From the sequence record MZ997841.1: 46,142 nt of DNA, one strand, 5' to 3'. Below the pieces are notes generated by a model, which saw only the letters and a program-made list of their open reading frames with translations, searched no databases and was not told the DNA's origin. The first letter of the stretch is position 1. The number at the start of each line of letters is the position of its first letter. This DNA is from Escherichia phage ULINTec7. The position numbers were made by a program, and so were the translations under genes. Shown piece by piece: positions 24,709 to 41,270 of the stretch.

Positions 24709-24733
24709 TATTTACTGGACACTATAGAAGGGA
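24709..24733 (+). promoter_or_regulatory. Phage-RNAP promoter upstream of the capsid gene
   Basis: TATTTACTGGACACTATAGAAGGG. Confidence 0.8.
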
Positions 24734-24780: not shown

Positions 24781-25986
24781 ATGTCTACACCGAATACTCT
24801 GACCAACGTTGCAGTCTCCGCTTCCGGTGAGGTAGACAGCTTGCTCATTGAGAAATTCAATGGTAAGGTGAATGAGCAGTACCTGAAAGGTGAGAACATC
24901 ATGTCCTACTTCGATGTTCAGACTGTTACTGGTACTAACACGGTAAGCAACAAATACTTGGGTGAAACAGAGTTGCAGGTTCTGGCACCGGGCCAGTCTC
25001 CGGCTGCAACCTCTACTCAGGCCGATAAAAACCAGCTGGTAATTGATGCCACTGTTATCGCTCGTAACACCGTTGCACACCTGCATGATGTACAGGGTGA
25101 CATTGATAGCCTGAAGCCGAAACTGGCAACCAACCAAGCTAAGCAACTGAAGCGTATGGAAGATGAAATGCTGATTCAGCAGATGCTGCTGGGCGGTATT
25201 GCTAACACTCAGGCTAAGCGTACCAATCCGCGTGTGAAAGGCCATGGCTTCTCTATCAACGTAGAGGTCAATGAAGGGGAAGCGCTGGTTAATCCGCAGT
25301 ATGTAATGGCTGCTGTAGAGTTCGCTCTGGAACAGCAGCTTGAGCAGGAAGTTGACATCTCCGATGTAGCCATCCTGATGCCGTGGCGCTATTTCAACGT
25401 ACTGCGTGATGCGGATCGTATCGTTGACAAGAGCTACACTATTAGCCAGTCTGGTGCAACCATTCAGGGCTTCGTACTGTCTTCCTACAACTGTCCAGTT
25501 ATCCCATCTAACCGATTCCCGAAATTTGCTCAAGGTCAGAAGCATCACCTGTTGTCTAACGAAGACAACGGCTACCGCTATGACCCTATTGCAGAGATGA
25601 ACGGCGCGATTGCTGTACTGTTCACTGCCGATGCACTGTTGGTGGGGCGCTCCATTGATGTTACTGGTGATATCTTCTATGAGAAGAAAGAGAAGACCTA
25701 CTACATCGACACCTTTATGTCTGAGGGTGCAATCCCTGATCGTTGGGAAGCAGTTTCTGTTGTGACCACTAAGCGTAATGTCACCACTGGTGCTGCTGAC
25801 AGTACCGCTGCTGCACAGCATACTCAGGTTCTTAACCGTGCACAGCGCAAAGCTGTATACGTCAAGAATGCTGCTCCGGCAGGTGATGCCGCTGCTGCTA
25901 CTCTTTCTGCTGAAGACTTGGTTGCTGCTGTTCGTGCTGTAATGGCAAATGACATTAAGCCGACTGCAATGAAACCTACTGAGTAA
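24781..25986 (+). CDS. Major capsid protein
   Basis: 401 aa with strong SD and codon usage that looks highly optimised; followed by a terminator. Confidence 0.85.
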   Translation: MSTPNTLTNVAVSASGEVDSLLIEKFNGKVNEQYLKGENIMSYFDVQTVTGTNTVSNKYLGETELQVLAPGQSPAATSTQADKNQLVIDATVIARNTVAHLHDVQGDIDSLKPKLATNQAKQLKRMEDEMLIQQMLLGGIANTQAKRTNPRVKGHGFSINVEVNEGEALVNPQYVMAAVEFALEQQLEQEVDISDVAILMPWRYFNVLRDADRIVDKSYTISQSGATIQGFVLSSYNCPVIPSNRFPKFAQGQKHHLLSNEDNGYRYDPIAEMNGAIAVLFTADALLVGRSIDVTGDIFYEKKEKTYYIDTFMSEGAIPDRWEAVSVVTTKRNVTTGAADSTAAAQHTQVLNRAQRKAVYVKNAAPAGDAAAATLSAEDLVAAVRAVMANDIKPTAMKPTE

Positions 25987-37389: not shown

Positions 37390-37672
37390 ACATGCAGCTA
37401 CAGAGGACGAGGTTGGCATTCTGCATGGTGCTATTACCAAAATCTTTAATAAGAAAGCACAGGCAATACTGGACACTATAGAAGAAGACCCAGATGCAGC
37501 ATTGCATTTAGTGTCTGGTAAAGACATTGGAGCTATGTGTAAGTGGGTTCTTGATAATGGTATTACCGCTACACCTGCTGCACAGCAGGAAGAGTCCAAG
37601 TTATCTAAGCGCCTCAAGGCTATCCGAGAGGCATCCAGTGGTAAGATAATTCAATTCACTAAGGAGGATTGA
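37373..37672 (+). CDS. Terminase small subunit (putative)
   Basis: GTG start at 37373 with GGAGGGA SD; sits immediately before the large terminase. Confidence 0.5.
   Translation: MSVHNKHAATEDEVGILHGAITKIFNKKAQAILDTIEEDPDAALHLVSGKDIGAMCKWVLDNGITATPAAQQEESKLSKRLKAIREASSGKIIQFTKED
37466..37488 (+). promoter_or_regulatory. Phage-RNAP promoter inside the small terminase gene
   Basis: AATACTGGACACTATAGAAGAAG. Confidence 0.6.
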
Positions 37673-39570
37673 TGGCTAAGGCAAGAGAATCACAAGCGGA
37701 GGCTCTTGCCAGATGGGAGATGCTACAGGAGTTACAGCAGACCTTTCCCTATACAGCGGAAGGTTTGCTTCTCTTTGCAGATACAGTTATCCATAACTTG
37801 ATTGCAGGCAACCCTCATCTGATTCGTATGCAGGCTGATATCTTGAAGTTCCTATTCTACGGACATAAGTATCGCCTCATCGAAGCGCCTCGTGGTATCG
37901 CTAAGACAACACTATCAGCAATCTATACGGTATTCCGTATTATCCACGAACCGCATAAGCGTATCATGGTTGTATCCCAAAACGCTAAGCGAGCAGAGGA
38001 AATCGCTGGTTGGGTGGTGAAAATCTTCCGTGGCCTAGACTTCCTTGAGTTTATGCTGCCGGATATCTACGCAGGGGACCGTGCATCCGTTAAAGCATTT
38101 GAGATTCATTACACCCTACGTGGTAGTGATAAGTCTCCCTCTGTATCCTGTTACTCAATCGAAGCAGGTATGCAGGGTGCTCGTGCTGATATTATTCTAG
38201 CGGATGACGTAGAGTCGATGCAGAATGCTCGTACGGCAGCGGGCCGTGCCTTGCTTGAGGAACTGACTAAGGAGTTTGAATCTATCAACCAGTTTGGGGA
38301 TATCATTTACCTTGGTACGCCTCAGAACGTAAACTCTATCTACAACAACCTACCTGCTCGTGGCTACTCTGTTCGTATCTGGACTGCACGTTACCCCTCA
38401 GTGGAGCAGGAGCAATGCTATGGTGACTTCCTTGCACCTATGATTGTGCAGGATATGAAGGACAACCCCGCACTTCGCTCTGGTTATGGGTTGGATGGTA
38501 ATAGTGGTGCACCTTGTGCCCCTGAAATGTATGATGATGAAGTCCTGATTGAGAAGGAAATCTCTCAGGGTGCAGCTAAGTTCCAGCTTCAGTTCATGCT
38601 TAACACTCGCATGATGGATGCAGACCGCTACCCACTACGCCTGAACAACCTCATCTTCACCTCATTTGGTACAGAGGAAGTCCCTGTGATGCCTACGTGG
38701 AGCAATGACTCCATCAACATCATCGGTGATGCACCGAAGTATGGCAATAAGCCTACAGACTTCATGTATAGACCTGTGGCTCGCCCGTATGAATGGGGTG
38801 CTGTTACACGCAAGATTATGTATATTGACCCTGCTGGTGGTGGTAAGAATGGTGACGAAACAGGCGTGGCTATAGTCTTTCTGCACGGCACATTCATTTA
38901 CGTGTATCAGTGCTTCGGTGTGCCAGGCGGATACCGTGAATCGTCCCTGAATCGCATTGTGCAGGCCGCAAAGCAGGCGGGTGTTAAAGAGGTATTCATT
39001 GAGAAGAACTTTGGTCATGGCGCGTTTGAGGCCGTTATAAAGCCATACTTTGAACGAGAGTGGCCTGTAACTCTGGAAGAGGATTACGCCACAGGACAGA
39101 AAGAGTTGCGTATCATTGAGACGCTGGAGCCACTCATGGCGGCGCACAGGCTCATCTTCAATGCCGAGATGGTCAAGTCTGACCTTGAGTCAGTACAGCA
39201 CTATCCACTTGAACTACGCATGTCCTACAGCCTTTTCAATCAAATGTCGAACATCACGATTGAGAAGAACAGCCTCCGGCACGATGACCGCTTAGACGCT
39301 CTGTATGGCGCTATACGGCAATTAACTTCTCAGATAGACTATGACGAGGTTACACGGATTAATCGCCTCAGAGCGCAGGAGATGCGCGATTACATCCATG
39401 CTATGAACACACCTCACCTCCGTAGGGCGATGCTCTATGGAGATTATGGCACTGAGCGAAGAGTAACCAACACTTCCGTGGCTATGCAGCAAAGAGTGTA
39501 CGGTCAGAATTACAGGAGTAAATCGGCCAACCGAAATACACTTTCTGCAAGGATTTCAAGGACTTATTAA
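37669..39570 (+). CDS. Terminase large subunit
   Basis: 633 aa; ATPase and nuclease region with IILADDVES; position and size match T7 gp19. Confidence 0.85.
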   Translation: MMAKARESQAEALARWEMLQELQQTFPYTAEGLLLFADTVIHNLIAGNPHLIRMQADILKFLFYGHKYRLIEAPRGIAKTTLSAIYTVFRIIHEPHKRIMVVSQNAKRAEEIAGWVVKIFRGLDFLEFMLPDIYAGDRASVKAFEIHYTLRGSDKSPSVSCYSIEAGMQGARADIILADDVESMQNARTAAGRALLEELTKEFESINQFGDIIYLGTPQNVNSIYNNLPARGYSVRIWTARYPSVEQEQCYGDFLAPMIVQDMKDNPALRSGYGLDGNSGAPCAPEMYDDEVLIEKEISQGAAKFQLQFMLNTRMMDADRYPLRLNNLIFTSFGTEEVPVMPTWSNDSINIIGDAPKYGNKPTDFMYRPVARPYEWGAVTRKIMYIDPAGGGKNGDETGVAIVFLHGTFIYVYQCFGVPGGYRESSLNRIVQAAKQAGVKEVFIEKNFGHGAFEAVIKPYFEREWPVTLEEDYATGQKELRIIETLEPLMAAHRLIFNAEMVKSDLESVQHYPLELRMSYSLFNQMSNITIEKNSLRHDDRLDALYGAIRQLTSQIDYDEVTRINRLRAQEMRDYIHAMNTPHLRRAMLYGDYGTERRVTNTSVAMQQRVYGQNYRSKSANRNTLSARISRTY

Positions 39571-39590
39571 TTACTGGACACTATAGAAGG
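39567..39590 (+). promoter_or_regulatory. Phage-RNAP promoter
   Basis: TTAATTACTGGACACTATAGAAGG. Confidence 0.8.
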
Positions 39591-39690
39591 AAGGCCCAGA
39601 TAATAAGAGAAATAACAAGGATAATATAGGTTAACCTAGGTTATATAGGTATGCCTTAGTATGGGTGTACTCCTGTACACCCTATTCCTT
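39591..39690. promoter_or_regulatory. AT-rich repeat region related to the 6353-6500 origin-like element
   Basis: Shares the 12-mer GGTTATATAGGT (39639-39650 and 6415-6426) plus ATAGGTTA and CCTAGG motifs; palindrome GGGTGTAC-TCCT-GTACACCC at 39663-39682. Confidence 0.4.
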
Positions 39691-39728
39691 ACTTCCTTAC
39701 TATACTCACATAATAGGAGAGAGAGAGA

Positions 39729-40007
39729 ATGTCTAATAGTTATAGCACACAACCCCTTACAGGTAAGTCTGCTCGTAAGCAGATACAACCTGTGAGTGAA
39801 GCCCTGATGCTTCCTGTAGTTTACGAGGACACTGTTGAGAAGAAAGGTGATGTTATTAATGATGCCACCAAATCAGGTAAGCAGAAAGGAGCCATGGTGT
39901 GTCTTGATACACATGATACACTGGTTATTGCTATCGCAGTTGATGGCAAAGAAGATTCCAATTGGCTGACCACGTTATTAGCGGTCACGACTATTACCCC
40001 AGCTTAA
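39729..40007 (+). CDS. Hypothetical protein, paralog A of a tandem pair
   Basis: 92 aa; shares MSN..., LKKK.D.IN, SGKQKG.MV, IAIA and TP.A with the next ORF. Confidence 0.55.
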   Translation: MSNSYSTQPLTGKSARKQIQPVSEALMLPVVYEDTVEKKGDVINDATKSGKQKGAMVCLDTHDTLVIAIAVDGKEDSNWLTTLLAVTTITPA

Positions 40008-40019
40008 GAGGAGAATTAC

Positions 40020-40307
40020 ATGTCTAATTATGGAAACGCAGGTACTGTTACTGGTCAAGCTTTTCGAGTAAAAACTGTACAAACCACTGCAACGGCAATC
40101 CCTTTGCCTATTGTTGCTGAAGCAGACCTTAAGAAGAAAGATCACCCTATCAACATTAAACACCTATCTGGCAAACAGAAAGGCTCCATGGTTGCTGTAG
40201 AGAAAGCAGACAACTCCTTGTACATCGCTATTGCACGTGGTAGTGAACCAACTGACCCTTGGGATGCAACCACTATGGAGACGGAACCTGTAACACCTGT
40301 AGCTTAA
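40020..40307 (+). CDS. Hypothetical protein, paralog B of a tandem pair
   Basis: 95 aa; see paralog A. Confidence 0.55.
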   Translation: MSNYGNAGTVTGQAFRVKTVQTTATAIPLPIVAEADLKKKDHPINIKHLSGKQKGSMVAVEKADNSLYIAIARGSEPTDPWDATTMETEPVTPVA

Positions 40308-40328
40308 TTGTAACAGATGAGGTCAATA

Positions 40329-40673
40329 ATGCTTAACAAATATTTCAAGCGACGCGAGTTCGCTTGCCGTTGTGGGTGCGGTACATCCACTGTTGATGCT
40401 GAGGTTGATGCTGAGTTATTACATGTGCGTGAGCACTTTGGTGCTCCTGTAGTTATTACTTCTGGACACCGCTGTGCTAAGCACAATGCCAATGTAGGTG
40501 GCGCTAAGAACTCCATGCATCTTACTGGTAAGGCTGCTGACATTAAAGTGTCTGGCATATTACCTTCTGAAGTGCATAAGTATCTTACTAGCAAATACCA
40601 AGGCAAGTATGGTATCGGTAAGTATAACTCCTTCACTCACATCGATGTACGGGATGGTTGTGCACGATGGTAA
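40329..40673 (+). CDS. Endolysin, peptidase M15 (zinc D-Ala-D-Ala carboxypeptidase / L-Ala-D-Glu peptidase type)
   Basis: ITSGHRCAKHN...MHLTGKAADI...FTHIDVRD matches the His/Asp/His zinc-ligand pattern of the family. Confidence 0.7.
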   Translation: MLNKYFKRREFACRCGCGTSTVDAEVDAELLHVREHFGAPVVITSGHRCAKHNANVGGAKNSMHLTGKAADIKVSGILPSEVHKYLTSKYQGKYGIGKYNSFTHIDVRDGCARW

Positions 40674-40798
40674 GATGTGTTGAATGGTGTGAGCGTATGG
40701 TTGCCCAAGCTGCCGAGGATGGCAACTATGATGACTGGAAGAACTACTCTGACTTGTTAGCTCAATGGAAAGGGAGATGCAATGAAAAAGCTGTTTAA
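40667..40798 (+). CDS. Hypothetical small Cys-rich protein (43 aa)
   Basis: Hand-translated ORF overlapping the endolysin stop. Confidence 0.25.
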   Translation: MVRCVEWCERMVAQAAEDGNYDDWKNYSDLLAQWKGRCNEKAV

Positions 40799-41247: not shown

Positions 41248-41270
41248 ATTTACTGGACACTATAGAAGAG
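41248..41270 (+). promoter_or_regulatory. Phage-RNAP promoter upstream of the tailspike genes
   Basis: GATTTACTGGACACTATAGAAGAG. Confidence 0.8.

Follow-up and report, generated by a model that had tools for sequence, protein, structure and literature searches.

Genes 41 and 42 of Escherichia phage ULINTec7, a tandem paralogous pair that probably encodes accessory virion proteins

Phages K1E, K1-5 and SP6 carry genes 41 and 42 (together with 42.3 in SP6), which have been catalogued as PHROG 2725 and which lie between the terminase and endolysin genes, downstream of a promoter and a leader hairpin. The 46,142-nucleotide stretch of Escherichia phage ULINTec7 analysed here (MZ997841.1; "the window" below refers to this whole stretch) holds direct orthologues of this pair, and nothing essential differs in their position, promoter or hairpin. 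The two products, gp41 and gp42, are 96% and 90.5% identical to gp41 and gp42 of K1E, in which the corresponding genes are flanked by terminase gene 40B and endolysin gene 43. Region 39500-40700 matched 112 phage records by megablast, with the best matches to Vectrevirus isolates (94% identity), K1E (90%) and K1-5 (84%), and the genome is a K1E/K1-5/SP6-like Vectrevirus of the Autographiviridae, subfamily Molineuxvirinae. Both genes are ordinary conserved members of the already catalogued K1E gp41/gp42 family, a family that is mis-named, structurally uncharacterised and unusual in its architecture. The analysis points to gp41 and gp42 probably being late-expressed accessory virion proteins, of the capsid-decoration or 'minor capsid protein' type.

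The sole family members with experimental evidence are gp45, gp46 and gp47 of Klebsiella phage Kp7, which were found in purified virions by sodium dodecyl sulphate-polyacrylamide gel electrophoresis and mass spectrometry and were named minor capsid proteins (bioRxiv 10.1101/2024.05.19.594906). Searches of the literature on capsid cryo-electron microscopy and proteomics of K1E, K1-5, SP6 and Vectrevirus turned up no mention of these proteins beyond the Kp7 preprint. The module and the locus of Kp7 are as in the window, with the difference that Kp7 has three paralogues, one of which bears a displayed immunoglobulin (Ig) domain, whereas the window has two bare modules. Kp7 gp45 and gp46, of 88 amino acids each, are closest to gp41 (40%) and gp42 (48%), respectively. 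Residues 1-90 of Kp7 gp47 correspond to the gp41/gp42 module (hhalign 97%) and its C-terminal domain is an Ig domain that matches that of pb10, a decoration protein of T5 (5lxk, 8zvi; E ~1e-16). The major capsid proteins of Kp7 and the window are also close, provided that PDB entry 7y3t is Kp7; the window capsid protein is very close to 7y3t over residues 1-362 (E 1.5e-178). A presence of gp41 and gp42 in the virion is presumed from that of the Kp7 homologues, and it is from the wider comparison that we infer a capsid location, a trimeric state and a cementing role. The Kp7 mass spectrometry, combined with the anchor-plus-display architectures described below, suggests a location on the particle surface.

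A preliminary description of the window had recognised two related open reading frames between the terminase and endolysin genes and had listed motifs common to both. All of this is borne out: both reading frames and their flanks lie where they were described (Table 1), the motifs are real, and the products share 35 of 93 residues (38%, E 2e-15 by BLASTP), such that gp41 and gp42 are paralogues. The relationship is also visible in the DNA as direct repeats in register, 294 nucleotides apart, in which the 27-mer coding for SGKQKG is 81% identical. Each protein is one small, beta-rich module of ~90 residues with a conserved N-terminal arm, and each contains the motif set of PHROG 2725 (N-terminal TG, N, SGK(Q).G, A.G, W and C-terminal TP(A)). 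The residues invariant across the family are T11, G12, N45, S50, G51, K52, G55, A72, W81 and the C-terminal TP. By tblastn, the two proteins were found in 141 and 164 phage records. The two genes share a reading frame, separated by TAA and 12 nucleotides, and read-through of the stop would yield a two-module fusion. The three copies of PP1 are likewise in one frame; because the arrangement is not kept in Kp7 or SP6, the shared frame is probably a matter of chance.

Twelve matches to the SP6-type promoter occur in the window, all on the + strand, compared with 1.4 expected by chance. The sequence of the match that precedes gp41 is kept in all relatives aligned, and its 15-mer core recurs identically at 24717, just 5' of the major capsid gene. 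This capsid-type core and the two strong Shine-Dalgarno sites suit an abundant late protein. The consensus promoter of the preliminary description is therefore real, but it is of the kind used by an SP6-type phage RNA polymerase and not of the sigma-70 kind, and it does not appear to be private to the pair. A scan for terminator-like sequences found none after gp42, and the next promoter lies at 41255, so that the promoter probably heads a late unit running from gp41 and gp42 through the endolysin, holin and spanin genes, with the M15 endolysin probably co-transcribed with the pair. This common transcription unit could also point to gp41 and gp42 as accessory factors of head assembly or lysis timing (chaperones or regulators), co-expressed with the lysis cassette and not retained in the particle, and gp41 does faintly resemble the co-chaperonin GroES (E 1.3 in the PDB, 0.08 in NCBIfam). 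However, the GroES score of 13 bits against a cut-off of 122 was set aside as spurious, the module is found 3' of the terminase even where the lysis genes or the gene order differ, and the Kp7 homologues were detected in virions; an assembly or lysis role is very improbable indeed.

The rate and age of the divergence between the copies bear on a second alternative. The gp41-like to gp42-like order is kept in K1E, K1-5, SP6, Kp7 and PP1, and because this order is common to K1E, SP6, Kp7 and PP1 the duplication predates these genera and is neither recent nor lineage-specific. Pairwise Nei-Gojobori estimates of the ratio of non-synonymous to synonymous substitution rates (dN/dS) across 13 loci gave medians of 0.32 for gp41, 0.28 for gp42 and 0.11 for the endolysin, with no pair above 1, and both gp41 and gp42 are under purifying selection. 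They nonetheless diverge much faster than the major capsid protein or the terminase. Compared with SP6, the major capsid protein is 93% identical versus ~35% for gp41 and ~52% for gp42; among loci with a 99%-identical terminase gp41 ranges from 62 to 94% identity, and in several such relatives both gp41 and gp42 are only 62-78% identical to those of the window. Identities among the relatives fall into discrete classes, at least 92% followed by a drop to 76% and 60-69%. Variation in gp42 is concentrated in four segments (residues 1-9, 34-41, 59-66 and 83-95), and residues 10-33 and 42-58 are highly conserved among orthologues. Such a combination, purifying selection on the one hand and faster divergence than in the capsid protein or terminase on the other, is in keeping with an accessory protein exposed on the surface.

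The preliminary description had regarded the diverging duplicates as a sign of an arms race between host and phage; under this alternative, gp41 and gp42 would be non-structural late proteins for anti-defence or superinfection exclusion. The faster evolution relative to neighbouring core genes does stand, the allelic types are discrete, the copy number differs among close relatives, and no known function or fold was found for either protein. However, the pair is old, its order is conserved and dN/dS is ~0.3; homologues are present in purified Kp7 virions; the genes belong to a late unit of structural and lysis genes headed by a capsid-type promoter; and display domains such as the Ig and knob domains fused to the module are typically borne by proteins of the particle surface. 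A PADLOC search gave only PDC-M69C (E 0.03, 12 bits), which is a weak test as the library consists of defence, not anti-defence, proteins. With nothing found to link the genes to defence or anti-defence, an arms-race role is quite unlikely, and among the options originally offered (anti-defence, superinfection exclusion or decoration) a decoration or minor virion protein is favoured. The earlier suggestion was to fall if both proteins were ordinary conserved structural proteins with a known function in relatives, and half of this holds: the proteins are conserved and have homologues in virions, and their function is known by name only.

An exhaustive profile search (267 cluster representatives at E <=1e-3) revealed that the module occurs in four forms: as a single gene, as two or three tandem genes, as the N-terminal domain of a longer protein, and as three fused modules. 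The locus after the terminase contains one, two or three module genes depending on the phage. The single-gene form is found in Vibrio phage phi-A318, in the Gajwadongvirus phages ECBP5 and MR4, and in an Edwardsiella phage, and in the latter three the module gene adjoins a separate gene for an Sf6-type knob. The separate 'tail needle knob' protein of ECBP5 was considered as a carrier of the module and contains none. In SP6 the third copy (gp42.3) is truncated, in PP1 all three copies are complete, and in some Vectrevirus relatives the third is extended by a C-terminal domain of ~140 residues; the window has neither the truncated nor the extended copy. The extended paralogue (225-237 amino acids; L014 2787-3485, L017 2796-3473 and L020 2760-3473) is inserted exactly between gp42 and the endolysin gene, where the window has a short spacer, and its additional domain has no Pfam match. 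Fusions to an Ig domain are represented by P0213 and Kp7 gp47, and fusions to an Sf6-type tail-needle knob by Ralstonia phage Reminis Rem54 and P0181 (PF16532, E 5e-43 and 2e-30); further members carry other C-terminal domains. The Sf6-type knob has been deposited as three chains of the same sequence in 3rwn and 4k6b.

The fused form consists of many proteins of 260-300 amino acids from uncultured Autographiviridae, in which three modules are joined by short TP.G linkers and each repeat retains the N, SGK, W and TP residues. None was found among the cultured phages in the collection searched. One of these proteins, P0271, is encoded directly after the large terminase on a 44.8-kb uncultured Autographiviridae contig, at a locus equal to that of the window. 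Separate hidden Markov models of fused repeats 1, 2 and 3 did not discriminate gp41-like, gp42-like and third paralogues, and an orthology between repeats and genes was not adopted. A collinear tblastn alignment of P0271 over the tandem genes would be expected for any tandem array and was not counted as evidence, and a match to P0193, a 794-amino acid protein of Ig repeats, was set aside as spurious.

Structure prediction, as recommended by the preliminary description, was applied to gp42 and to P0271. The AlphaFold2 model of gp42 (105 sequences) is moderate, with a predicted local distance difference test (pLDDT) of 72 and a predicted template modelling score (pTM) of 0.51, and contains a small beta core; residues 1-25 are of low confidence (score ~50). 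The model of fused P0271 (34 sequences) is confident (pLDDT 85.7, pTM 0.80), with 190 residues above 90 and inter-module linkers at 70-89, and the module is beta-rich in the AlphaFold2 models. Judged by its pTM, P0271 would have its three modules packed as one rigid body rather than as beads on a string. That residues 10-33 are conserved and yet residues 1-25 are modelled with low confidence in the monomer is in keeping with an arm that takes on order only upon assembly. No known fold was matched by the models: the best Foldseek hit against the PDB had an E of 0.27, and the hits against BFVD were uncharacterised family members and a few longer proteins in which the module is terminal. Neither protein matched a Pfam (E up to 0.1) or NCBIfam model, and a PDB sequence search found no chain of the family in any entry. 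Designed 'Pizza' propeller or repeat proteins, returned by the PDB profile search, were spurious and consisted of seven stretches of ~3 bits each.

A unit of three is suggested by the fusion to a trimeric knob, the single-chain triple predicted to be rigid, the loci with three paralogues, and the conserved arm that is poorly modelled in the monomer. In the mechanism that we propose, three modules would pack into a rigid three-part body, either a trimer or a pseudo-trimer, which would dock on the exterior of the mature T=7 capsid, where it would occupy hexon centres or local three-fold positions and serve as cement or anchor. In other phages the anchor would bear a displayed C-terminal domain (Ig, Sf6-type knob or other), and in the window phage gp41 and gp42 would both be bare anchors, the old paralogues either co-assembling as mixed trimers or taking different quasi-equivalent sites. 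A further-reaching proposal, put forward tentatively, is that the ~90-residue module represents a capsid-anchor fold that has not been described before and functions only in threes, whether realised as homotrimers, as mixed trimers of two or three paralogues or as a three-module chain, and that it acts as a plug-in platform for Ig, knob or enzyme domains; phages with two genes could then form gp41/gp42 mixed trimers or divide the T=7 sites between them.

Several observations weigh against placing the proteins on the capsid, or against the unit of three. The window phage has two modules, and a unit of three would need a 2:1 mixed trimer or separate homotrimers. The naming of the Kp7 proteins is based on mass spectrometry and BLAST in a preprint (bioRxiv 10.1101/2024.05.19.594906), the Kp7 structures are cited as unpublished, and no experiment or structure was found in which a family member sits on a capsid. 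In 7y3t, the closest solved capsid, sequence search found no chain of the gp41/gp42 family, fold searches gave no similarity to any known decoration protein, and the rigid packing of P0271 is read from pTM alone. Additionally, tail and neck-whisker proteins (9c2d, 9occ) are among the matches of the Kp7 gp47 Ig domain, and BFVD contains proteins named tail fiber, pectate lyase and SGNH esterase with the module at their N-terminus. Since the Ig, knob and enzyme partners also occur on tails, the anchoring site could be the neck or tail.

This last point leads to the alternative that gp41 and gp42 do belong to the virion but do not decorate its capsid, and that the module is a trimeric N-terminal anchor attached, like the anchors of whiskers or fibres, to the portal, neck, adaptor or tail; at such sites gp41 and gp42 would be bare anchors or fillers. 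Besides the partners just named, the knob domain of the fusions is known above all from tail needles, and the pair is located close to the tailspike genes, in the tail-proximal part of the late region. Conversely, hhalign gave a probability of <=0.2% for the module against the N-terminal adaptor-binding regions of both window tailspikes and of K1E gp46, the BFVD names are automatic and the underlying matches weak (E 1e-3 to 3e-2, including those to pectate lyase-like proteins), and the authors of the Kp7 study, who are also the depositors of the Kp7 capsid and fibre structures, class the homologues as capsid proteins. We consider a neck or tail anchor unlikely and retain accessory virion proteins of the capsid-decoration type as the favoured reading.

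Several described decoration systems resemble such an arrangement in part. T5 pb10 and T4 Hoc have the same layout as Kp7 gp47, an N-terminal anchor followed by a C-terminal Ig domain, but in pb10 it is only the Ig domain that matches and the anchor module has no sequence match to the pb10 N-domain. Both pb10 and Hoc bind hexon centres as monomers, whereas a unit of three is proposed for the gp41/gp42 family. With lambda gpD, T4 Soc, phage L Dec and the phi29 gp8.5 head fibre, the proposed likeness is that of a small trimeric accessory protein at local three-fold sites of an HK97-fold shell that is dispensable for assembly (see also the review PMC7602432). No sequence or fold similarity to gp41 or gp42 was found for these proteins, and their families are not known to include pseudo-trimers of a single chain or paralogous genes in tandem; nor was sequence or fold membership found in any of the described decoration families (lambda gpD, T4 Soc/Hoc, phage L Dec, T5 pb10, alpha-claw and jelly-roll cement). 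In PhiM1, also of the Autographiviridae, alpha-claw and alpha-paw (gp44 and gp43) are paralogous decoration proteins that have a common capsid-binding motif and occupy different quasi-equivalent sites, one being bare and one extended (PMC11440229), and they provide a precedent for gp41 and gp42 dividing the lattice. The PhiM1 pair and the HRP29 decoration proteins are, however, helix-turn-helix dimers at two-fold axes, whereas the gp41/gp42 module is beta-rich and shows signs of a three-part assembly.

If RefSeq and PHROG 2725 are taken at their word, gp41 and gp42 are acetyl-CoA acetyltransferases (thiolases), a reading to which we give practically no credence. It has in its favour a propagated name only, carried by phrog_2725 and many RefSeq records. 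Thiolases are ~390 amino acids long and have two thiolase domains; the proteins here have just 92-95 amino acids, with no thiolase or acyltransferase match in Pfam or NCBIfam (E up to 0.1 or 1) and no PDB match to such enzymes in sequence or fold. The database name is unsupported, and the pair stands under this wrong enzymatic name in well over a hundred sequenced phages. Its correction takes a false 'metabolic gene' out of phage annotations, including those of the SP6/K1E/K1-5-like phages that are common in therapy and capsule-targeting work. The genes are ordinary for the genus and no long-standing open question is touched. Should the module prove to be a trimeric capsid anchor of a new fold, it would add one more family to the short list of decoration-protein architectures, offer a natural case of one assembly encoded by one, two or three genes or by a fused chain, and join pb10, Hoc/Soc and gpD, which already serve for display, as a candidate scaffold for the engineering of T7-supergroup phages.

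Table 1. Features of the gp41/gp42 locus, in window coordinates.
Feature	Position	Strand	Details
Large terminase gene	37669-39570		flanks the pair upstream; uninterrupted, 633 amino acids
SP6-type phage RNA polymerase promoter	39571-39595	+	ATTACTGGACACTATAGAAGGAAGG; exact match to core GGACACTATAGAAGG at 39576-39590
Hairpin in the 5' leader of the gp41 mRNA	39663-39682	+	8-bp stem, GGGTGTAC-TCCT-GTACACCC, then a pyrimidine-rich tract; terminator-like scan
gp41-type gene, first copy of the ~90-residue module	39729-40007	+	92 amino acids; ribosome-binding site AGGAG, 9 nucleotides before ATG; phrog_2725 E 3e-40, residues 1-92
gp42-type gene, second copy of the module	40020-40307	+	95 amino acids; ribosome-binding site AAGAGGAG, 6 nucleotides before ATG; phrog_2725 E 2e-46, residues 1-94
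Endolysin reading frame (Peptidase_M15_3)	40317-40673	+	PF08291 E 4e-31; phrog_894

Compared with shuffled sequence, the full leader of the gp41 mRNA shows no excess of structure (z -0.06), and an Rfam search of it gave no match; only the short hairpin stands out. This hairpin is identical in every Vectrevirus locus aligned, even where the coding sequence is only ~73% identical, and its stem is maintained elsewhere through changes on both sides (GGGTACTC/GAGTACCC in Kp7, GGGAC/GTCCC in PP1). It may act as a pause site, an attenuator or a stabiliser of the mRNA. In Vibrio phage phi-A318, a 'phage terminator' is annotated at the equivalent position. Between the promoter and the hairpin, an AT-rich stretch (39596-39660) contains a tandem 19-nucleotide repeat (TAACAAGGATAATATAGGT / TAACCTAGGTTATATAGGT) and a palindrome around GGTTAACC; TAGGT motifs recur along it and are found in SP6 and Kp7 as well. 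By position, this stretch presumably resembles T7 phiOR, a promoter with an AT-rich secondary origin downstream of the terminase gene.

A 95-amino acid protein, P0093, is encoded directly after the terminase on short metagenomic contigs (L023 1632-1919; L024 1023-1310) and joins gp41-type residues 1-57 to gp42-type residues 58-95 at the common SGKQKGAMV motif. Either it arose naturally, by a deletion when the two paralogues recombined, or it is an artefact of assembling contigs at low coverage. Reading frames on the minus strand of the gp41/gp42 stretch had no support. Downstream of the pair, the true start of the endolysin is probably the ATG at 40329 (MLNKYF...), in front of which GAGG lies 6 nucleotides 5'; the endolysins of relatives (114 amino acids) begin at MLNK, and the region reads TVDAEVDAELLHVREHFG in the window compared with TVDAELLQVVTDVREHFG in all relatives. 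Upstream, the large terminase of K1E (L001 427-3071) is split into 40A and 40B by the homing-endonuclease gene 40.5, and a K1E-like interruption at residue ~390 of the terminase also occurs in L017, L018, L021 and L022. The major capsid reading frame of the window (24781-25986) encodes 401 amino acids, and the closest solved chain, that of 7y3t with 363 amino acids, aligns to residues 1-362 only; the last ~40 residues are an extension common to K1E and SP6.

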